Shown here piece by piece: positions 168 to 9,748 of a stretch of 14,496 nucleotides of DNA. Within the stretch, counting starts at the first letter, position 1. Every line of letters starts with the position of its first letter. Both the position numbers and the translations under genes were made by a program. The notes below the pieces were generated by a model. It worked only from the letters and a program-made list of their open reading frames with translations. It was not told where the DNA came from and did not search any database. Source of the DNA: Promethearchaeota archaeon. GTDB taxonomy: Archaea > Asgardarchaeota > Lokiarchaeia > Sigyniarchaeales > SOKP01. The stretch is taken from positions 1 to 14,496 of the forward strand of contig JAHLWH010000121.1 in the NCBI GenBank assembly GCA_019058015.1, given 5' to 3'.

Positions 168-1367
168 ATGGGACGCCATTATTTAGCTATAGAACAAGCC
201 TATCGAGATGGAACCCCTACGGCATGGGCTACTAGTGGGACTTCTGTTGAGATGCTTTATACTTTTGATGTTCAACCAATTTTACCTGAAAATGCTGCTA
301 CTATTTCTGCCGCCCAGAAAGTTTCAAAAAAATATATTGAATCTGCTGAAGACTTAGGTTTTTCATATGATTTATGTTCTTATTTTAAAACAAATGTTGG
401 AGCTATGCAAAATAATGCACCTATTGACTTAGGAGGAATAAATCCTCCAACATTTATGGTCGCAGCAGATGTAATTTGTGATACTCATGTGAAATGGTTT
501 CAAGTCCAATCTCAAAGATATAAAGTTCCACTATATATAATTGATGTCCCTCATGTCACTAGCAATACAACAAATAAACAAAAGGAGTATTATCAGTTAT
601 ATGTAGAAGAACAGATGCTTGAATTAAGGGATTGGATCTCAGAAATAACTAAAAAAGAATATAATGAAGAAAAATCAAGAGAGGTTATTACTAATTCCTA
701 CGAGTTAAGTGAATACTGGATTAAGATTTTTGAATTAAGAAAAGCAATACCTTGCCCGGTATCAACCAAAGATACTTTCGGTGGTTTATTTCCACTTTTT
801 ACTATGCCCGGGTTAAAAGAGCCAATTAGAGTATTTAAAAAAATGTATCAAGAGACTCAAGAAAGAGTAGATAATGGAATCGGGGCTTTAGAGAACGAAC
901 AATACAGGCTACTTTTTTCAGGAATCCCATTCTGGTATAATTTAAAATTTTTTAGTATTTTGGAACAATGGGGAGCAATTATTGTATTTGAACCTTATAC
1001 TTATTCTTTTGGAAAATTCTTAGATCCATCAATGAGCAAGGAGTATATAATCAATAATCCGATCAAGGCTATGGCAAAAATTATGTTGTCTTTCTGGTAT
1101 ATATACGATCTTGAAACAAGAGTGAGGGAGTTCAAAAGAGTGATAAAGGAGTGGAAGATTGATGGTTTAATATTGCATAACAATCTTTCCTGTCGACCCA
1201 ATTCATGTGGACTATATGATCTTAAACAACGGCTTATGGAAGAAGAAGGTATTCCCTCTATAGTAATTGACTCAGATATGAATGATCCACGGAAGATGAA
1301 CGAGGAAATATTAAAAAACCGGCTGGAAGTCTTTATGGAAATATTAAGAAAAAGTGAAAAGCGCTAA
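168..1367 (+). CDS. 2-hydroxyacyl-CoA dehydratase subunit (HGD-D / benzoyl-CoA reductase B-C family, [4Fe-4S])
   Basis: Motifs AWATSGTSVE, PEN, GFSYDLCSYFKT, ICDTHVKWFQ, IDGLILHNNLSCRP, GIPSIVIDSDMNDPR; three conserved Cys. The true start may be ATA at 108 (see findings). Confidence 0.92.
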   Translation: MGRHYLAIEQAYRDGTPTAWATSGTSVEMLYTFDVQPILPENAATISAAQKVSKKYIESAEDLGFSYDLCSYFKTNVGAMQNNAPIDLGGINPPTFMVAADVICDTHVKWFQVQSQRYKVPLYIIDVPHVTSNTTNKQKEYYQLYVEEQMLELRDWISEITKKEYNEEKSREVITNSYELSEYWIKIFELRKAIPCPVSTKDTFGGLFPLFTMPGLKEPIRVFKKMYQETQERVDNGIGALENEQYRLLFSGIPFWYNLKFFSILEQWGAIIVFEPYTYSFGKFLDPSMSKEYIINNPIKAMAKIMLSFWYIYDLETRVREFKRVIKEWKIDGLILHNNLSCRPNSCGLYDLKQRLMEEEGIPSIVIDSDMNDPRKMNEEILKNRLEVFMEILRKSEKR

Positions 1368-1389
1368 TTTTATTTCTCTTAAACATAAT
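1236..1389 (+). repeat. Copy 1 of duplicated dehydratase 3' end (last 43 codons, stop and ~20 nt downstream)
   Basis: Aligns without gaps to 3603-3734: 33/43 aa and about 95/132 nt identical; post-stop TAATTTTATTTCTCTTAAACATAAT vs TAATTTTTTCTCTCTTTAACTTAAT. Confidence 0.93.
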
Positions 1390-1402
1390 TATGTTTTTTT
1401 TT
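1381..1402. terminator. 16-bp perfect palindrome AAACATAATTATGTTT running into a T9 tract; likely terminator between convergent genes
   Basis: Palindrome at 1381-1396 and T-tract at 1394-1402, just after the dehydratase stop; oligo-T termination is typical of archaea. Confidence 0.4.
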
Positions 1403-1448
1403 GCAAGCTTTATAATGAGCTTTAAATCCTTGAGGACTGACTTTTCTT

Positions 1449-3278
1449 TTACATATTGGACATGTCTTTTTTAAACTTTCTTCCATTTTTCTTCTTCCAT
1501 TTCCCTGATTCCAGTATTGGATATTTTTTTAGAAAATGTTCTGAATTGGTAGAGTAAGTATTCATTAAATTATCAAAACTTACATATTCATCTGAAAAAA
1601 TTCTTTCATAAAATGCTCTCATTTGCGATGAAGACTTAAATGAAACAGTGAATTTATCTTCCATAATATCCTTAGGGTCTTTACCTTGATTCAATAATTC
1701 CTTTGTTACTCTTTTTCTCAACTCCGTCTTAATTAATTTGAGTGAATCCAATTCTTTTCCAAGAAGTATCCTTGAAAGAGGTTTTACAAATTTCTTTGAA
1801 TAAAGCCAAGCCCAAGATACACCAAGTTGATTTGCTAATTCCTCTTTTTTCATTTTACTTTTAGAACTAATTAACCATGATTTCCATTGTTCAACAGAAT
1901 AACCCTTTAATATTCTCTGAATTTTAGCATTATATATCTTTAAATTCTCCCAATCTATAATATTCGCTTCGACTAAAGCTCTTAAATCTCCGAATTTATT
2001 TCCCTCAAACCATTCTTGTATCTTATAATTTAGTGTTTTTGAGTCCATATCTATTGAGACAGCGATATCTTTTAGATTAAACTTCTCATTATCTTTGATT
2101 AGAGATTCTACAACAGGTTTTAAAACCAATTCTTGTAATTCTTGAGATGAACCAAATTCCTGAGAAAAACGTTCAGAAAATGTACTACTAGCATAATTGT
2201 ATTTATAAGAACTATTAAGAATTTTAATAATTTTCTCATGTTTAACACCAAGAGAAACAAGAGCAATATAATCAAAAATAGGAAGTTCTACTTCAAGTTT
2301 ACTACCTCCACTACCCCCTGAAACCATATTAAGTCCATTAGGCCATAATGTTCCTTTAATTTTTTTGTCTTTTATATAATGAATATAATTTTGAGTTAAA
2401 TCATATTCATGTGAGAGAGCAGCATACCTTTCCTTATGAAGCTCCAACTTAGTTATTTTAAAGTGTTTTTTAATAACTTCTTCTATGATAAAATTATATA
2501 ATTTTTGAGATTTCCAACTACCTCTATTAAAATCCAACCAATTTGATATTGCTTGAAGATCTTGTATATTATCTTCATCAATTTGTGGTTCAATCCGCTG
2601 AATTTCTGTTTGAATCGAATTTAATTCCATTTCTAAAGCAAGGCATGTCGCTTTCATTAAATATCTAGAGATTTCTTCTCCGGTCATAATAGATTTAATT
2701 TTACTATTTAATGTATCATCTATGTGATTCTTTATTCTTCTATTGAAATTCTTAGTATAACCAATATAGGGTAGATTTAAATAAGGAATTAATTTACTCT
2801 CTAATTTATATAACACATATTTATAACCATATTTCAATGGATTCTTAGATATTTTCTCAAAATCAGCTTGACCTTTAACTTTATATCCAGGAATATCAAC
2901 CCAATTTCTTAAATCAGGCTGAATATTTGACTTAGTTGAAAATTTATCCGATATTTGCTTTAAAGAAAGTAAAAAATTCTCAATAACAAATTTTGAATAT
3001 TCAAATAATTTATTATACAGTTTCTTATTTTTATATTCTTTAAGAATTTTAAATTTTAAATCATTATAACCGTCTAAAGTGTATTTTTTATATAATTTTT
3101 CTATTACATCATTATTTTTCTTTTTCTCTAAATCTTTATATTCATTATTGTTTTTTGACCCTCCATCATTTTTTATGATTTGATTTATCTCATTCATTTC
3201 TTCTTCTGATTCTTTGCTATTAGTCTTTTTAATTTTCAAATCATTACTCTTTATTATATTAATAGGGACAATATTCAT
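1449..3278 (-). CDS. Free-standing GIY-YIG endonuclease with C-terminal HTH-like DNA-binding repeats (homing-endonuclease-like)
   Basis: YVLYKL...PYIGYTKNFNRRIKNH (GIY-YIG motifs with catalytic Arg and His), ALSHE (Glu), WPNGLNMVSGG (Asn motif); HTH-like segments NLKDIAVSIDMDSKTLNYKIQEWF and KKEELANQLGVSWAWL. Confidence 0.8.
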   Translation of the reverse strand: MNIVPINIIKSNDLKIKKTNSKESEEEMNEINQIIKNDGGSKNNNEYKDLEKKKNNDVIEKLYKKYTLDGYNDLKFKILKEYKNKKLYNKLFEYSKFVIENFLLSLKQISDKFSTKSNIQPDLRNWVDIPGYKVKGQADFEKISKNPLKYGYKYVLYKLESKLIPYLNLPYIGYTKNFNRRIKNHIDDTLNSKIKSIMTGEEISRYLMKATCLALEMELNSIQTEIQRIEPQIDEDNIQDLQAISNWLDFNRGSWKSQKLYNFIIEEVIKKHFKITKLELHKERYAALSHEYDLTQNYIHYIKDKKIKGTLWPNGLNMVSGGSGGSKLEVELPIFDYIALVSLGVKHEKIIKILNSSYKYNYASSTFSERFSQEFGSSQELQELVLKPVVESLIKDNEKFNLKDIAVSIDMDSKTLNYKIQEWFEGNKFGDLRALVEANIIDWENLKIYNAKIQRILKGYSVEQWKSWLISSKSKMKKEELANQLGVSWAWLYSKKFVKPLSRILLGKELDSLKLIKTELRKRVTKELLNQGKDPKDIMEDKFTVSFKSSSQMRAFYERIFSDEYVSFDNLMNTYSTNSEHFLKKYPILESGKWKKKNGRKFKKDMSNM

Positions 3279-3599
3279 TTTTTTTGAAATTTGGCTATAG
3301 TCTAGATATCGACTAAAATTTGGAGTTTAATCTCTTGATAAAGAGGAACCATCAATAATCTTATAAAACGGGAGCCAAACTCCACTGGTAAGGGATTATT
3401 CAAAGAAAATACACTTATTCTTCTTATTATCTAATACGAAATGTTTTTTTTTAACATATAGAGAGTGTTAAATCTTAGATTTATGGAATATTCATTCTAA
3501 AATATTAGATTTTCACATTTAAAACTTTTTAACCCAAATGAATTTCAAAATATAAAAAATCACTTATTCTCAATAATTATGTTGAATTTATCTTTAATC

Positions 3600-3734
3600 T
3601 TAATGGATGAGGAAGGAATTCCATCCCTTGTTATTGAATCGGATATGAACGATCCAAGAAAAATGAATGAAGAACAACTTAAAAATAAATTAGAAAGCTT
3701 TATGGAAATCTTACAAAAAAACAAAAAAGGATAA
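3600..3734 (+). pseudogene. Orphan (displaced) 3' end of the dehydratase gene
   Basis: Reads LMDEEGIPSLVIESDMNDPRKMNEEQLKNKLESFMEILQKNKKG*, same length as and homologous to 1233-1367; no homologous upstream portion. Confidence 0.92.
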
Positions 3735-3867
3735 TTTTTTCTCTCTTTAACTTAATCGGGTCTTTTTCTAATTTTTTAACTTTCTATTTCTAAATTATTA
3801 GAAAAATTCTATTTTATTTTTAATCATAAGTAACTAAATAAAATGTTAAAATTGTCTGTATACCTTT

Positions 3868-5073
3868 TCAAAGAGTAAAAAATTTTATTGCTGTCATAAC
3901 TGCTCCACTTATTATAGGAACAGAGAAATTGTCATTTATCCTCAATGATAAAACCTCAGTGAGAGCTGCAGTAATTCCACCTAAAATAAGTAGAATTAAA
4001 GGGAATTCCAAAACAGTATAAATTATATATCCGCAGATGAGTGCACAACCAATATATGCTAATGTACCTTCAACTGTTTTTTTAAATATCTTATGTCGAC
4101 CAAAACTTAACCCAAAAATTTTACTAAAGATATCACCAAAGATAAGAAAGGTTAAAGCGGCGAAAGCAATCTCTATCTCAAATAAAAGTATTGTTATGAA
4201 AACTGCAACTAAGAATATTGTCATTGATGAAAATTTTTTAGACTCATCTTTCTTAAATAATGACTTAATTCTTACTGTTAAAAGTTCATTTGTTCCCTTA
4301 TGAATGAATCTAATAATATCAAGGAGTATAAAAACTAAACATACACATCCGATGATTATGAGGGCTACCATTTTTGAGTAACAAATATAAAATACAATGA
4401 AAAAAATGGCAAATGGTCTTAGAGCAACCCTCCACCATGGAGATTTGAATGTTTTATCTTCAATAATTATTTTTTTGAAGACTACTATGTTATAAATACC
4501 AATTGAAATAATGTAAGCAAGAATTAAACAAAAAAAGATATTATGAGGAACATCAGTATAATATATAAAAACAGAATATGCTAATAGAGGAAGTACAATG
4601 ATGCCTATAATTTCTCCAGTTTTAGTAATATAAGCAAAAATTGCTACAATAATAAGCAAAAAACAAAGAAAGTAAAAAATCTCCGGACCGATAAGAATAT
4701 ATTGTACTAAATAAAAAAGCATTATTCCTGTAGCACAAGCTACACCTTGACCACCACGAAAGCTAATATAAAAAGGTAGGATATGCCCAACAATAGCCAC
4801 TAAACCACTTATTTGCGCAAATATATAATCTGCTCCAATACTTTGTGTTAACAAAATAACAAATAATCCCTTTAAAGTATCAAATATTGCCGTAGGAATA
4901 GCATATACAACTCCTAAAGTATGATATACATTTAAGGTACCAGCGTTACAAGTACCTTCTTTTCTTATATCAATGCCTTTTAATCTACCAAAAAAATAAG
5001 CAGGTAAAATCGACCCTATAAAATAACCAATCAAAATACTTAAAATATTTATTATTATTTCACTAAGTTCCAT
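3868..5073 (-). CDS. PlsY-like glycerol-3-phosphate acyltransferase domain fused to a CTP-dependent polyprenol/diacylglycerol kinase-like domain
   Basis: N-half: GYFIGSILP, DIRKEGTCNAGTLN, FDTLKG, GHILPFYISFRGGQGVA. C-half: FGDIFSKIFGLSFGRHKIFKKTVEGT, INDNFSVP (dolichol/phytol kinase/Dgk1-type motifs); polytopic membrane protein. Confidence 0.85.
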   Translation of the reverse strand: MELSEIIINILSILIGYFIGSILPAYFFGRLKGIDIRKEGTCNAGTLNVYHTLGVVYAIPTAIFDTLKGLFVILLTQSIGADYIFAQISGLVAIVGHILPFYISFRGGQGVACATGIMLFYLVQYILIGPEIFYFLCFLLIIVAIFAYITKTGEIIGIIVLPLLAYSVFIYYTDVPHNIFFCLILAYIISIGIYNIVVFKKIIIEDKTFKSPWWRVALRPFAIFFIVFYICYSKMVALIIIGCVCLVFILLDIIRFIHKGTNELLTVRIKSLFKKDESKKFSSMTIFLVAVFITILLFEIEIAFAALTFLIFGDIFSKIFGLSFGRHKIFKKTVEGTLAYIGCALICGYIIYTVLEFPLILLILGGITAALTEVLSLRINDNFSVPIISGAVMTAIKFFTL

Positions 5074-5288: not shown

Positions 5289-5648
5289 TTAAGATTGCTT
5301 TTTTAATAACTTGAATAAATTCATATATTGCTCAATATAACTCTCATCACCAGTTTCCTCATATTTTACTAATAGTTCTATTGATTTTGATAAAGTAAAA
5401 GATTTTTCTGCGATCTTTGTTTTAATATCCTCTTTCTTCCGCTGCGACATCGTAATCTTAAGTTGATTTTCCATTCTATCTATATCTTTCTGCATTTCTT
5501 CTTGTTGTACTTTTAATGCAGCAGTTCTTTTACGTCTTTCTTCAAGTTTAATACAATTTTCGCAAATTTCGCTTGTAGAGTTTTGATCTCTAAAAAATGG
5601 ATTTGAACAAAGTTTACACCGAACTAATTTTGTTTTGAGTTTTTTCAT
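5289..5648 (-). CDS. Hypothetical protein with N-terminal CxxC-x12-CxxC zinc finger and coiled coil
   Basis: CKLC...CENC followed by a K/E/Q/R-rich helix. ATG at 5648 (MKKLKTK) is preferred over the track's 5669 start because the ATG is kept in the second repeat copy while the upstream frame has indels. Confidence 0.7.
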   Translation of the reverse strand: MKKLKTKLVRCKLCSNPFFRDQNSTSEICENCIKLEERRKRTAALKVQQEEMQKDIDRMENQLKITMSQRKKEDIKTKIAEKSFTLSKSIELLVKYEETGDESYIEQYMNLFKLLKKQS

Positions 5649-5752
5649 ATTTAAAAAAAAAGTATTCAATTTTATGAAAAGTAATAAAATTTAATATTAA
5701 ATATCTTTTTATTTCCAAGAATCTTACAATTATGTTTCTTAAAAATTAGCAT
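5634..5752 (+). repeat. Left direct repeat of island 2 (~119 bp)
   Basis: TTTGAGTTTTTTCAT...TTTTATGAAAAGTAA...TTAAATATCTTTTTATTTCCAAGAATCT...AAATTAGCAT recurs at 9630-9748 at roughly 90% identity; includes the first 5 codons of the Zn-finger gene. Confidence 0.93.
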
Positions 5753-5986
5753 TTTTTTTATTTTCTACATTGATATCACCCAATTCTTTATATTTGGTAA
5801 TTCTATAATCTTTAAATTATTCATATAAAAAGTACCTCATACATTTCGATTTATTCGAATTTTTTTTAATATTTCTTGTTGATTCCTAACGATTAAAACC
5901 GCACGAATGCGTTGTTCAACCTATTCAATCTTTGATTGAATCAGGAGCATTAAAGAATTTTTTAGCGCAAGAACTTAGAAATCATC

Positions 5987-6061
5987 ATAATATTTTTATA
6001 ATAATTTTGAAAGTATACATAATAGTCAACAAATCCTGACTAAAAAAATTTAATATAAAAA
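5987..6061 (+). repeat. Repeat A copy 1 (promoter/operator-like, ~75 bp)
   Basis: ATAATATTTTTATAATAAT...AATAGTCAACAAATCCTGACTAAAAAAATTTAATATAAAAA recurs at 7037-7110; contains TATA-like boxes and inverted repeat TAGTCA-N8-TGACTA (6023-6042). Confidence 0.85.
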
Positions 6062-6113
6062 GTGTGAAAGAATGAAATTAAAAACTAATTTAAAATTTAT
6101 TAGGAGATATTAA

Positions 6114-6364
6114 TTGAAGAAAAGAGATTGGATTATCCTAGGATTCATTAATTCGGTAATTTGGTTTTTTGGAGGCTTAATTTTATTCTTGGTATTAGGA
6201 AATGGAAAAATTTGGTTCTTAACCCCATTATAACATTTGCAGGAGCATTAGGTTATTTTATCAGTTGGTGGTTGATTGGATGGCCCATTTTCAATCTCAA
6301 AAACAAAAAGCGTCTAAGGAAACAAGTAAATGAAATTAATATCAGTTTAATATCTAAAAAAAGG
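6114..6364 (+). pseudogene. Frameshifted small two-TM membrane protein (immunity-like)
   Basis: AGGAGA (6102-6107) then TTG 6114: MKKRDWIILGFINSVIWFFGGLILFLVLGNGKIWFLTP. One extra base at the CCCC run (6223-6226) joins it to IITFAGALGYFISWWLIGWPIFNLKNKKRLRKQ, which resembles the 6661 protein. The original 3' end is uncertain because it runs into repeat B. Confidence 0.65.
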
Positions 6365-6410
6365 ATTTTTTTTATTTGGCGATGTTTAAATCACTTAGAG
6401 AAGGAAGGAA
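6365..6410 (+). repeat. Repeat B copy 1 (46 bp)
   Basis: ATTTTTTTTATTTGGCGATGTTTAAATCACTTAGAGAAGGAAGGAA; 45/46 identical to 6988-7033. Confidence 0.93.
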
Positions 6411-6418
6411 GAAAAAAA

Positions 6419-6631
6419 ATGAATATACTTATTGAATTGGGATGTGGTGTTCCAGGTGCAGTTGTATATGTGTTGACTTGCGGTTCTATTTGTGGTCCCA
6501 GCGGTCCTGGTTTTCCTGTTTGTGCAGTCATATGCGGTACTATTTGTGCTGCTATGGTTATTGCTATTTGCTACTTTATTGGACTTTATGGTATGAGTAC
6601 TGATTGTTGGGGAATATGTGGCATGATTTAA
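6419..6631 (+). CDS. Cys/Gly-rich hydrophobic peptide, halocin-C8-like; probably the truncated C-terminal domain of a larger precursor
   Basis: 70 aa MNILIELGCGVPGAVVYVLTCGSICGPSGPGFPVCAVICGTICAAMVIAICYFIGLYGMSTDCWGICGMI with 9 Cys in CxxxC spacing, almost no charge, GC-richer than flanks. Confidence 0.6.
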   Translation: MNILIELGCGVPGAVVYVLTCGSICGPSGPGFPVCAVICGTICAAMVIAICYFIGLYGMSTDCWGICGMI

Positions 6632-6660
6632 AATAATTTTCAAAAGGGAGATGAAAAGAT

Positions 6661-6936
6661 ATGGAAAAAGATATGGAAAAGGATTATGTTAAAAGGAATG
6701 CGGATATCATGGGATTAACAATTATTATAACTTTCTTCATTGTCGGTTTTTTATTATGGTTTTTCGTAGGAGGTGCGAGTTTACCATTTGCCATTGGAAT
6801 TGCATCTGGATACGCACTTGGTGGTTTAATAGGATGGATCTTAATAAGAGGACACATAATACGAAAAAATAAAAAAAGAATTCAAAAGAAACAAGCAGCA
6901 CTCAACTCAATGAGGAAAAATAAAACAATCGGCTGA
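6661..6936 (+). CDS. Small two-TM membrane protein, putative cognate immunity protein
   Basis: 91 aa, two Gly-rich hydrophobic helices and a basic tail; GGGAG RBS; starts 29 nt after the Cys-rich peptide stop. An alternative start at 6673 comes from a tandem ATGGAAAARGAT duplication. Confidence 0.75.
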   Translation: MEKDMEKDYVKRNADIMGLTIIITFFIVGFLLWFFVGGASLPFAIGIASGYALGGLIGWILIRGHIIRKNKKRIQKKQAALNSMRKNKTIG

Positions 6937-6987
6937 ATAAATAATATTATTAGATTACTGAGAAGAAAATTGAATATCCAATCTAAA

Positions 6988-7033
6988 ATTTTTTTTATTT
7001 GGCGATGTTTAAATCACTTAGAAAAGGAAGGAA
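6988..7033 (+). repeat. Repeat B copy 2
   Basis: 45/46 identical to 6365-6410; lies 3 nt before repeat A copy 2. Confidence 0.93.
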
Positions 7034-7036
7034 TAA

Positions 7037-7110
7037 ATAATATTTTTATAATAATGTTGAATATATTCAAAATGGTCAAAAAATCCTGACTAAAAAATTT
7101 AATATAAAAA
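7037..7110 (+). repeat. Repeat A copy 2 (promoter/operator-like)
   Basis: Matches 5987-6061; TGGTCA-N8-TGACTA at 7073-7092; ends directly at ATG 7111. Confidence 0.85.
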
Positions 7111-7569
7111 ATGTCCTTAATGGGAGTAAAAGAAAAGATCAAGAATTTTTGGAAAAACTATAAGAAAAACACGATATGGGTTAGTATTGGACTTTGTATG
7201 GGCTTGATATACATGAAGTGGGTGTTATTTTATTTCGGAATTATAGACTTGATGCTGGCGATCTTTCTTACAGTTTTGTACCCACTACCAATATTTTTCG
7301 TATATTATGGTAGAAAATTAAAACACCAAAAGATCATTTTTAAAATATGGTTGGTAGGATTAGTCGGATTTGTTTTCGGTGGTATTTTATGGATTTTTCT
7401 CGGCTATGTACTTATTACTGCTCCTTGGGCCCCCTTACGAGTTTTGATTTTGGATGCAGTGTTAAGAGGTAGAATTCTACTCCTCCTCCTACCTACTTTA
7501 TGTGTAATTGCAGGATACATAATGTATAGAATAGGTAAAAAAAGAGAATGGAGACTTCCTTCGACTTAA
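7111..7569 (+). CDS. ~150-aa four-TM membrane protein, paralog 1
   Basis: KEKIKxFWK N-terminus, four hydrophobic segments, APWA loop, GYIMYRxGKKR C-terminus; about 70% identical to 8628-9089. The start could be 7120. Confidence 0.85.
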   Translation: MSLMGVKEKIKNFWKNYKKNTIWVSIGLCMGLIYMKWVLFYFGIIDLMLAIFLTVLYPLPIFFVYYGRKLKHQKIIFKIWLVGLVGFVFGGILWIFLGYVLITAPWAPLRVLILDAVLRGRILLLLLPTLCVIAGYIMYRIGKKREWRLPST

Positions 7570-7604
7570 TAATTTGAAAAATTAAAATATGTTCCTACTC
7601 GTAG

Positions 7605-8054
7605 GTGGTTGTATTGAAGATAAAAGAAAAGATTAAGAAATTTTGGAATGAATTTAAAAAGCGTTGGTTATGGATTAGCATTGGAAATTATATGGGTATA
7701 AATATAACATTGTGGTTATTATATTTTTACGGGTTTGCAATTTTAGGAATGACACTAACTTTTTCACTTGTAGCTCCCTTAATTCTACTAGGTATTTATT
7801 ATATTAGAAAATCTAAATATCAAGCAGATATCTATAAGTATGTTTGGATAATCGGTGGTGCGGCATCTATAGGGGGTTTAATTTGGTTTGGAATCGCTTA
7901 TATTCTTCAAGGTGCACCGTGGGCTTCTTTTCGTGATTATCCTCTTATTTTCAGAATTCCCTTTGATATTATAACAACTGTGCTGTGTTGGGCTTTGGGA
8001 GGGTATATAATGTATAGATTAGGAAAAAAGAGAGACTTCAGACCTTTCATATAG
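7605..8054 (+). CDS. ~150-aa four-TM membrane protein, paralog 2
   Basis: Same motifs (KEKIKKFW, WISIGNYMG, APWAS, GGYIMYRLGKKRDFRP); the most diverged copy; GTG start. Confidence 0.85.
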   Translation: MVVLKIKEKIKKFWNEFKKRWLWISIGNYMGINITLWLLYFYGFAILGMTLTFSLVAPLILLGIYYIRKSKYQADIYKYVWIIGGAASIGGLIWFGIAYILQGAPWASFRDYPLIFRIPFDIITTVLCWALGGYIMYRLGKKRDFRPFI

Positions 8055-8055
8055 A

Positions 8056-8127
8056 GCGTTAGGAGTTATTATCTGCGAAAGACTACGTACTGAATCATGT
8101 TGGGCGATTTGTTGTGAATATGAATAA
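8056..8127 (+). pseudogene. Remnant C-terminal tail of a second Cys-rich peptide
   Basis: Reads ALGVIICERLRTESCWAICCEYE*; CWAIC matches the terminal CWGIC of 6419-6631; followed by a spacer homologous to the one after that peptide. Confidence 0.6.
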
Positions 8128-8171
8128 TAAAAAATCTTTTAAAAAATCTTTCAAATAGGAGTTGATAAGGC

Positions 8172-8453
8172 TTGAAAAAAAGAGGATTAAGAATGTTTAT
8201 CGTTATACCATTAATCAATTCAATCTTTTTATTCTTTTTTATAATTTTACTTTCCTATTTTTTAAGGGGAACAGCCATAATAACCGATATTTTCAGTGCT
8301 TTTTGGAATGCATCTGTATCATTTATAGTATTGTGCTTATTTTTTAGAAGTAAGTGGTTCCAAGGTCAAGTAAAAAAATACAAAAAAATAAAATGTCCCA
8401 TAGATCTAAATGAAAAATATTTCCAGTTAGAGAATGAGACAAATGAAAATTAG
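8172..8453 (+). CDS. Small two-TM membrane protein, putative immunity protein
   Basis: AGGAG RBS, TTG start, MKKR...INS N-terminus like the 6114 gene, two hydrophobic helices, basic tail. Confidence 0.65.
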   Translation: MKKRGLRMFIVIPLINSIFLFFFIILLSYFLRGTAIITDIFSAFWNASVSFIVLCLFFRSKWFQGQVKKYKKIKCPIDLNEKYFQLENETNEN

Positions 8454-8470
8454 TACGAAAAAATATTATA

Positions 8471-8623
8471 ATGGATTACGAATCTAAATTGGATAAAGTA
8501 AAACATAAGAATTCTGAAATAATTGTTTATTGCAAGTCCGGGAAAAGGAGTCAGCAAGCAAGTGAAATTCTCGTCGAGTATGGCTTTACAAAAGTATATT
8601 TGTTACCCATGACATATTCGTAA
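8471..8623 (+). pseudogene. Internal fragment of a rhodanese-like domain
   Basis: Reads MDYESKLDKVKHKNSEIIVYCKSGKRSQQASEILVEYGFTKVYLLPMTYS*; EIIVYCKSGKRS...L...GFTKVY is the rhodanese active-site loop region; lacks the N-terminal DVR...GHI and C-terminal GG...W motifs. Confidence 0.85.
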
Positions 8624-8627
8624 ATAG

Positions 8628-9089
8628 ATGATTGTAATGAATGTAAAAGAAAAGATCAAGGGTTTTTGGAAAGCCTATAAAAAGAACTGGTTATGGATTA
8701 ATATTGGAAATTGTATGGGCTTAACGTTCATGAATTGGTTATTATTTTTTATTGGAGTTATAAATTTGGTGATACCAATCCTTTTAACAGTTTTTTACCC
8801 ATTTGCGATATTTTTAGCGTATTATGGTCGGATATCAAAACACCAAAAGATAATATCTAAAATTGTTTTGATAGGATGTGGCGGATATGGTTTCGGTATT
8901 ATTATGTGGATTTTTCTCGGCTATGTACTTATTGCTGCCCCTTGGGCACCCTTACGAGTTTTGGTTTTGGATGCAGTGTTAAGAGGTAGAATTCTACTCC
9001 TACTTATGGTGACTTGCTGTGTAATTGCAGGATACATAATGTATAGAGTAGGAAAAAAAAGAGAATGGCGACTTCCTTCGATTTATTAA
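8628..9089 (+). CDS. ~150-aa four-TM membrane protein, paralog 3
   Basis: Ungapped alignment to paralog 1 (about 107/152 identical); homology continues ~20 nt past the stop. Confidence 0.85.
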   Translation: MIVMNVKEKIKGFWKAYKKNWLWINIGNCMGLTFMNWLLFFIGVINLVIPILLTVFYPFAIFLAYYGRISKHQKIISKIVLIGCGGYGFGIIMWIFLGYVLIAAPWAPLRVLVLDAVLRGRILLLLMVTCCVIAGYIMYRVGKKREWRLPSIY

Positions 9090-9629
9090 TTTGAAAAATA
9101 AAAATATAATTTTTTTTTTGAAGTAAATTGAATATTTAGAAAGTTCATTATAATCTTTTAAACTTATAATTTTCTTAAGAATTCTTGTTAAATATGATTT
9201 TCTGAATAACTTGAAAAATGAGTAACTTACTTTCTCCTACTTTTACTTATTTAATTATTAATTTCCTTTCATATTTTTCATATTTTTCTTAAAATAAATC
9301 TATAATCTCGAAATATTGGGATTTAAATGCAGAGTTACAAAAATTACTAAAAAGAAGCGAAGAATAAAAAATGGAAAGAATGACTTCGAATAAATAATAT
9401 ATATTTAGATTTAAGATTATAAGAAGAGAAATTTAATAATTATTAGCATCAAACTCAAAATTTATTGATTGAAAACATTAAAATCTTGATTTAAAGTTTT
9501 ATAATATAGATAAAATTTAAATGCAGATATAGAATCTTATATATCTTAATTAATTTAGGTTATTTGATAAAAAAATAAGGAATATAATTCTGGATAGTCA
9601 GTTAAATATATTATAGATTAATTGATTTA

Positions 9630-9748
9630 TTTGAGTTTTTTCATTATTTTAAAAAAAAATATTCGATTTTATGAAAAGTAAAAAAATTTAATGTTAAATA
9701 TCTTTTTATTTCCAAGAATCTCACAATTGTGTTTTTTTAAATTAGCAT
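9630..9748 (+). repeat. Right direct repeat of island 2
   Basis: Copy of 5634-5752; carries an orphan ATG AAA AAA CTC AAA on the minus strand and the upstream region of the hydrolase gene. Confidence 0.93.

Follow-up and report, generated by a model that had tools for sequence, protein, structure and literature searches.

We analysed a 14,496-nucleotide stretch of DNA from a Promethearchaeota archaeon (hereafter the window), which is one entire contig, JAHLWH010000121.1, of a genome that is 94% complete. The window carries an island of small genes for membrane proteins, fragments encoding cysteine-rich peptides and short repeats. Comparison with related genomes indicates that the pieces of this island belong to a family of secreted precursors, found in Asgard archaea and related archaea of sediments, in which a conserved carrier bears an exchangeable Cys-rich C-terminal peptide (the tip) and is followed by a small gene encoding transmembrane (TM) segments. 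To judge from the sequences, this is a real polymorphic system with paired membrane genes that is present in multiple genomes, and the breakpoints of the island are readable base by base; the function is predicted. We consider it rather probable that this family works as a polymorphic system of secreted archaeocins and that the window holds an array of such units with their precursor bodies deleted. The original prediction, made from the window alone, had proposed an archive of immunity genes against secreted archaeocins with variable tips. This interpretation is supported, with toxicity and immunity as its predicted components.

Intact precursors in related genomes

The 4-TM family represented in the island was found in 15 of the 61 genomes searched. 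The genome of the window itself has two more 4-TM copies, each immediately downstream of a reading frame that is cut by the contig end and closes with a hydrophobic, Cys-rich tail. In relatives, the gene upstream of the 4-TM homologues encodes a precursor of ∼460–490 aa, composed of a hydrophobic N-terminal signal (recognized by eye), an optional rhodanese domain, a carrier of ∼240 aa, often a Gly/Pro linker, and a tip of ∼70 aa. An intact unit comprises a 5′ region, the precursor and one small gene with two to five TM segments, whose product is 66–185 aa long. Full-length precursors with a signal peptide, a conserved N-region and a variable Cys-rich tip, which the original prediction expected to exist in related archaea, were therefore found. 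One locus (L090, 1–5983) holds two full precursor and TM units with different tips, 3.2 kb apart and with unrelated genes between them. The working precursor of the cell itself is probably encoded elsewhere in the genome, with pieces at the ends of contigs C276, C188 and C76.

The rhodanese domain is well formed (Z score 17.7, root-mean-square deviation (rmsd) 1.4, 100 aligned residues), and a pattern match finds its active-site Cys kept in 55 of 57 sequences. It is missing in at least 12 representatives, in which a signal-like N-terminus is joined directly to the carrier. The carrier ends in Asp in 117 of 125 representatives. In AlphaFold models (predicted local distance difference test scores of 87 and 82), the carrier forms one extensive antiparallel sheet plus a pair of long helices; the tip is modelled as helices with lower confidence. 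The carrier has no match in Pfam or NCBIfam, and carrier plus tip have no clear match in the PDB or BFVD: the best hit, a beta-barrel wall, has a Z score of 7.0 and rmsd of 2.7 over 103 aligned residues, which does not in itself prove a new fold. Fold searches with the whole precursor returned rhodaneses only.

A profile of the carrier delimits a family of 234 clusters at 50% identity, with a patchy occurrence in 20 of 400 genomes of the phylum. Named members come from Promethearchaeia, Thorarchaeota, Njordarchaeota, Bathyarchaeia and Thermoprotei, together with one metagenome-assembled genome of Bacteroidota, and are entered in databases as rhodanese-related sulfurtransferases. Some precursors have further domains. 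In P0184, a Hint-like domain, a module common in polymorphic toxins, directly follows the tip, starting at a Gly-Cys junction (E-value 9e-7, below the cut-off). A shared post-tip domain that begins with Cys-Pro after a Gly run occurs in L065, P0063, P0088, P0093, P0097, P0120 and P0173, and in P0003, P0031, P0037 and P0046 a domain is inserted ahead of the tip.

The 167 tips form 41 or 64 clusters, depending on the threshold. They have a median length of 70 aa, a grand average of hydropathy of 1.36, a net charge of −3 and mostly 8–14 Cys. The number of Cys is even in 144 of 163 tips (67 of 74 in the first set, p 2e-13), from which we infer that the tips are fully disulfide-bonded. Two tip classes display no profile similarity (5%) and are not detectably homologous. 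Among 8000 scored candidates, class-II tips occur only on this carrier or on partial sequences, which is weak evidence. One tip class sits on three N-terminally truncated carriers (L070 and the second units of L078 and L097) with no same-strand TM gene after it; two of these have a convergent membrane gene.

Joint variation of tips and adjacent membrane genes

The loci contain 56 units, 40 of them distinct; leaving out one unit without a tip and two at contig ends gives 37 evaluable units. A same-strand small membrane gene, recognized by a hydropathy heuristic, comes next in 31 of the 37. The TM homologues are accordingly not single-copy and conserved, a pattern that would have spoken against the original prediction, but multi-copy, variable and placed directly after tips.

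The proposed co-variation of tips and TM genes was recovered by rank Mantel tests on the 27 units with a carrier of at least 150 aa. Tip and next gene are correlated (r 0.547, p 2e-4; partial 0.545), whereas the coefficients are small for carrier and next gene (r 0.063, p 0.27) and for carrier and tip (r 0.075, p 0.18), with all these p-values inflated by the relatedness of the sequences. In the 22 units left after removal of the five most distant ones, the respective values are 0.668, 0.106 and 0.027. Two units (L059 and L087) have carrier ends that are 93% identical, followed by unrelated tips and next genes. The carrier tree rejects a single clade both for the 4-TM class (p 2e-76 in the approximately unbiased test) and for class II (1e-52), and requires at least four changes in each; L108 is wrongly labelled 'other' in this tree, since its 4-TM gene is truncated. 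The pairing between one tip subclass and a 4-TM homologue recurs beyond the class, in one genome (L126). Four loci (L062, L064, L068 and L069) are arrays in the order precursor, 4-TM gene, orphan tip, 4-TM gene, and orphan tip and TM cassettes occur downstream also in L092 and L055. These sequence patterns show that the tip and the TM gene are exchanged jointly, with the breakpoint at the linker.

The island consists of pieces of precursor units

The island is flanked by 120-nt direct repeats at 5634–5752 and 9630–9748 that are 91% identical, a feature beyond those listed in the original prediction. The array at 5987–9112 itself was found as predicted, with all elements at their coordinates and in the order proposed; its genes and the pieces of precursor units described below are on the plus strand. 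Repeat A (5987–6065 and 7037–7114, 89% identity) and repeat B (6365–6420 and 6988–7043, 93% identity) are each present in two copies. We rejected the possibility that these are chance repeats: they correspond to homologous gene ends.

The stretch at 5961–6099 is a precursor 5′ region, made up of repeat A (a putative promoter) and the first nine codons, with the body deleted. It is 88% identical to positions 759–897 of L090, just ahead of a full precursor, and the repeat A region also precedes precursors in L092, L096 and L078. The next stretch, 6102–6420, matches L090 at 2320–2634, and the precursor between the two matches is therefore cleanly missing, with its 5′ end joined to the leader of tm1. 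The stretch from 6102 contains tm1 (6114–6340), a frameshifted 2-TM gene of class II and the predicted cognate of a CWWFCC-type tip, whose halves are 69% and 88% identical to the gene after the first L090 precursor (independent E-values (iE) of 9e-8 and 3e-12 with a hidden Markov model, HMM). Repeat B forms the 3′ trailer of the class-II TM gene (6346–6420), with a T-run that may be a terminator, and it trails the same TM gene in L090 (2560–2634). Its fusion partner in the window is the interior of a tip, and the junction lies at 6420/6426.

This orphan tip is a 70-aa open reading frame (6419–6631) with 9 Cys that ends in CWGICGMI. It is followed by the 2-TM gene tm2 (6661–6936), a putative immunity gene to the tip just upstream. 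The peptide is 75% identical to the tip of the L095 precursor and tm2 is 64% identical to the gene after that precursor; together they make one block of 81% DNA identity with the intact L095 unit. The peptide is cut at its N-terminus and retains 9 Cys of the 14 in the intact tip; as it also lacks a signal peptide, it is probably inactive. We considered a stand-alone gene for a 70-aa bacteriocin and rejected it: the start is the fusion junction, and the signal peptide and three N-terminal Cys are missing. The congener G002 still has two copies of the peptide.

The second copies of repeats B and A (6970–7114) lie directly before a 4-TM gene, and repeat A leads straight into it. This orphan gene (a, 7111–7569), the predicted cognate of GCFGGDP-type tips, is 91% identical to the gene after the L072 precursor and 83–85% identical to the two copies that follow tips in its own genome. 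The orphan 4-TM gene b (7605–8054), the predicted cognate of a second tip subclass, is 51% identical to the gene that follows the L074 precursor and 48% identical to its counterpart behind the L073 precursor, and the orphan 4-TM gene c (8628–9089) is 78% identical to the gene after the L078 precursor. The mutual identity of the three paralogues is 40–71%.

A second Cys tail (8053–8127, with the motif CWAICC) is present where it had been described, but its significance as a tip did not hold up: its best score against 216 tips, 47, is reached by 13 of 200 shuffles, and the HMM of class-II tips misses it. It aligns without gaps to a tip end, and the next gene, tm2b (8172–8453), a 2-TM gene and distant class-II member, falls weakly in the matching TM class (iE 0.005). 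We regard this marginal, non-significant match as a probable decayed tip end.

The rhodanese fragment (8471–8623, Pfam E-value 7e-8) contains an internal piece of a precursor rhodanese (8505–8599, ∼32 codons, residues ∼98–131) with the CKSG loop. The piece is 79% identical at the amino acid level to the L002 precursor (E-value 6e-11) and 94% identical at the DNA level to a truncated precursor in L095. Directly after it, at 8600–8627, come the final codons of a tip and the leader sequence of 4-TM gene c, which align to the tip end and spacer of L078. A free-standing rhodanese pseudogene was rejected. By these matches the rhodanese fragment is identified as precursor debris and repeat A as the precursor 5′ end; both had been correctly reported as present, but as parts of the precursor they are not bystanders. 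The 88 nt at 8416–8503, just before the rhodanese fragment, share 91% identity with an intergenic segment of G002 that belongs to an unrelated locus (L114, 1148–1234).

At least four precursor bodies have been lost from the island and five of its six TM genes are intact, which agrees with the predicted contrast between mostly intact membrane genes and fragmentary Cys-rich and rhodanese pieces. Two of the deletions end at a TM leader right behind a precursor 5′ region. Neither the TM genes of the window nor the 70-aa peptide belong to a Pfam or NCBIfam family, and weak matches, such as that to MakA (E-value 0.002, 17 of 320 bits), were taken as chance similarity of hydrophobic sequences. The 4-TM profile found no relative among solved structures. 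A scan for sigma-70 promoters was at chance level, with a model that is unsuited to archaea.

Variation of the site among congeners

We searched four congeners (G001–G004), three of which cover the site (all except G003). In G001 and G004 the site is empty, with both flanks joined via one copy of the 120-nt repeat, and the island is thus missing in two of the three. In G002 it is present and 93% identical to the window up to position 7043, after which a second repeat B with Cys peptide stands instead of the 4-TM gene. The order repeat B, repeat A, 4-TM gene occurs in G002 as well, on contig C359 (L055). The site is variable in both presence and content, in line with the locus variability that the original prediction called for.

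An assembly artefact is unlikely because contigs from two other studies carry pieces of the same arrangement, one of them spanning 6370–7022 with the peptide and tm2; no single piece covers the entire island. The frameshift in tm1 is a 5-nt insertion that is absent in G002 and in one contig of run X3, and is therefore a strain-level lesion.

Selection on the island

In the comparison with G002, the ratio of nonsynonymous to synonymous substitution rates (dN/dS) is 0.17 and 0.08 in the flanking genes. It is 1.19 in the peptide (5 changes), 1.25 in tm2 (11 changes, 9 nonsynonymous and 2 synonymous) and 2.2 in the N-terminal half of tm1 (9 changes). The orphan 4-TM genes have values of 0.26–0.74; of the five comparisons behind these, two are significant, and one of those two is an old split. 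The TM genes of intact units range from 0.42 to 1.66. Between the window tip (6419–6628) and the L095 tip (1029–1271) we count 20.5 nonsynonymous against 0.5 synonymous changes (p 0.005 without correction for 30 comparisons); the TM gene adjoining the L095-like tip has a dS of 0.28. Diversifying selection or recent conversion of the tip is possible. We do not use this ratio as proof of positive selection because it is driven by the low dS.

These values bear on an alternative that concerns this island and not the family, namely that the island is unselected debris: an imported, decaying array whose TM genes are intact since they are short and the array is young. We give this a substantial chance, somewhat below an even one. 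The ratios above one in the peptide, tm2 and tm1 are as expected of debris, as are the tm1 frameshift, the different losses of Cys from the peptide in G000 and G002, and the empty sites in congeners. It is harder to reconcile with the loss of every precursor body while five of the six TM genes stayed intact, with the two deletions that end just behind a precursor 5′ region, and with the lower ratios of the 4-TM orphans, where counts are small. Furthermore, the TM genes of intact units evolve fast as well.

Predicted function and alternative explanations

The variable tip and its matching membrane gene are most likely a toxin and its antidote. In the archaeocin system that we favour, the exported precursor would have a tip that is held together by disulfide bonds and masked by its carrier until it is set free at the Asp or linker at the carrier end, or close to it. 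Once free, the tip would act like halocin C8 and damage the envelope or membrane of archaea related to the producer, in whose own membrane the cognate TM protein would neutralize it. Extra cassettes of tip and TM gene are gathered downstream of the precursor unit. The island lies between two housekeeping genes, where its insertion probably came with a 120-nt duplication, and it has since lost at least four precursor bodies; five intact TM genes and a broken one are left, two of these fused directly behind a precursor 5′ region. Such an island could broaden resistance without toxin production and could donate tips by recombination.

Several observations weigh against this reading, in addition to the inflated p-values of the Mantel tests. 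No tip matches a known toxin domain above the cut-off, and TIGR04449, the halocin C8 model, has no match above its 24-bit cut-off in any of the 161 genomes of the class, with a positive Haloferax volcanii control. Six of the 37 units have no downstream TM gene, four of them N-terminally truncated and two full-length (L079 and L065). Plain linkage also yields co-variation of tip and TM gene once the breakpoint lies in the linker. In 10 of the 15 genomes with the 4-TM family no precursor was found (L005–L014 and L020), including the one-contig genome G050 with two 4-TM copies, and a clear tip remnant is seen in one of the 11 precursor-less loci (L006); such genes would fit orphan immunity but also an independent role. 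Finally, no purifying selection is seen in the orphan tm2 and tm1 relative to G002, with few changes to count. Of the proposed archive of immunity genes, the orphan TM genes with tip-matched homologues stand, whereas selection to maintain them is conjectural, as dN/dS of the 2-TM genes is near or above one, on few changes.

The exchange and pairing of tips would equally be expected if the system served self/non-self recognition or signalling without killing, with the tip as a variable disulfide-bonded ligand and the TM protein as its cognate receptor or adhesion partner, which is among the options put forward for VARTIG of Thermococcales. The tips are anionic helical peptides without a toxin-family match, and the available part of PMC8416519 reports, in Thermococcales, a module whose membrane genes are paired and for which no toxin could be identified. 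We nevertheless hold recognition to be unlikely: no signalling domain on the cytoplasmic side is present in the small TM proteins, the loci viewed, in which no systematic count was made, showed no conserved sensor or regulator alongside, and the retention of many TM genes with deleted ligands, along with orphan tails of tip and TM gene, is the pattern of an immunity array. A surface-anchored extracellular sulfurtransferase or redox protein, with the tip as a membrane anchor, the TM protein as an assembly partner and both diversifying to escape viruses, would account for the well-formed rhodanese, the TM-like helices in the tips and the database name, but is very improbable, since at least 12 representatives lack the rhodanese, an anchor needs no 41–64 unrelated variants each with its own partner, an enzyme has no use for orphan tips and TM genes, and the occurrence is patchy.

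Returning to the archaeocin reading, we tentatively extend it to a bolder form, which we think somewhat more likely wrong than right: Asgard archaea and Bathyarchaeia may share a toxin family, so far undescribed, that comprises dozens of disulfide-bonded peptides acting on membranes and delivered by one carrier without a clear match among solved folds, with a rhodanese that may aid bond formation and a small membrane immunity protein for each toxin. The islands would then be selected immunity banks, in which the toxin is deleted and the immunity gene placed behind its promoter.

The family bears on the little-explored questions of how Asgard archaea compete with and recognize one another, and its proteins are hidden in databases under the rhodanese label. 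If the bolder form is true, the closest prokaryotic relatives of eukaryotes would have a defined kin-killing system. The matched pairs of tip and partner are short enough to be synthesized, which makes antagonism or kin recognition in Asgard archaea and Bathyarchaeia directly testable. The tips, with their more than 40 classes, are also candidates for disulfide-rich antimicrobial peptides, and the breakpoints of the island show at the nucleotide level how such arrays are built.

Neighbouring genes

A small gene for a coiled-coil protein with Cys motifs (5289–5669) is divergent from the left repeat. It is kept in congeners, has a dN/dS of 0.17 relative to G002 and could be assigned to no family. 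Further upstream, a 609-aa gene with a weak GIY-YIG match (1449–3278, minus strand) lies between the 3′ end of an HGD-D gene and a 73% identical duplicate of that end. Both copies of the end map to one place in G001 and G004, and we therefore interpret the stretch at 1236–3767 as another insertion that is flanked, as the main island is, by the copies of a direct repeat, here a long one. The gene at 3868–5073 encodes a membrane protein of 401 aa that has a PlsY-type glycerol-3-phosphate acyltransferase domain and is considerably extended at its C-terminus; it is 98% identical in G002 and was not found at this site in G001 or G004.

Comparison with known systems

The peptide of halocin C8 is Cys-rich and hydrophobic. 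Like halocin C8 (ProC8; TIGR04449, TIGR04450, PF22862), the family has a C-terminal hydrophobic Cys-rich peptide of ∼70–80 aa on a larger precursor, so that the likeness drawn in the original prediction holds for the architecture but not for C8 family membership by the curated model. The C8 models give weak matches below the cut-off at the tip in 3 of 64 proteins (64 of 150 listed; best 15.2 bits), and the one TIGR04449 match in the class (L112) was rejected, as it lies in an unrelated enzyme gene. According to the accessible part of a preprint (bioRxiv 10.64898/2026.07.27.741052), halocin C8 is made as a secreted 283-aa precursor exported by twin-arginine translocation (Tat), with the immunity domain HalI at the N-terminus and a 76-aa peptide at the C-terminus, and kills through the envelope. 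Here, immunity is instead predicted to come from a distinct membrane gene that matches the tip, inspection by eye showed no twin-arginine motif, and the tips are swapped among dozens of classes. No Pfam match to PF22862 (HalI) is listed for the precursors, a model that HalI-like folds in bacteria are reported to escape in the same part of that preprint. As possible counterparts of the halR and halT1-3 neighbours, a regulator and an ABC transporter were seen only beside L065, with no systematic count. The haloarchaeal precursor in the part of PMC12893001 available to us is a different one, with an N-terminal effector.

The precursor N-terminal domain resembles single-domain rhodaneses of the GlpE/PspE type in its fold and its Cys-bearing active-site loop, but here it is an optional module of a secreted precursor, complete in intact precursors and reduced to a short fragment in the window. 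VARTIG of Thermococcales, as presented in the consulted sections of PMC8416519, is likewise a hypervariable archaeal locus with C-terminal recombination and membrane genes paired with variable-domain subfamilies. VARTIG has Ig domains and is reported there from Thermococcales only, whereas what varies here, in Asgard archaea and Bathyarchaeia, is a helical, Cys-rich peptide; no Ig family is among the Pfam matches shown, and the tip is modelled as helices. The family is not described in the available parts of PMC6393860 or PMC8619533, nor in the full-text literature searched; a prior mention in the main 2019 survey of archaeal polymorphic toxins or its supplements is possible.

The contact-dependent inhibition (CDI), Rhs and MafB loci accumulate truncated toxin C-termini, each followed by an immunity gene. 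As polymorphic toxin systems are defined in the available text of PMC8416519, the family resembles them in its long first gene, conserved carrier, variable C-terminus, dedicated adjacent gene, downstream orphan tip cassettes and patchy distribution. Features of this kind were found here in the secreted conserved carrier (signal by eye) with its interchangeable tip, in an adjacent gene that tracks the tip, and in the orphan cassettes. Unlike in CDI, Rhs and MafB, all tips seen are hydrophobic Cys-rich peptides and not nucleases or other enzymes, the partners are all small membrane proteins, and the carrier has neither a Pfam or NCBIfam match nor a clear structural one and may be preceded by an N-terminal rhodanese.

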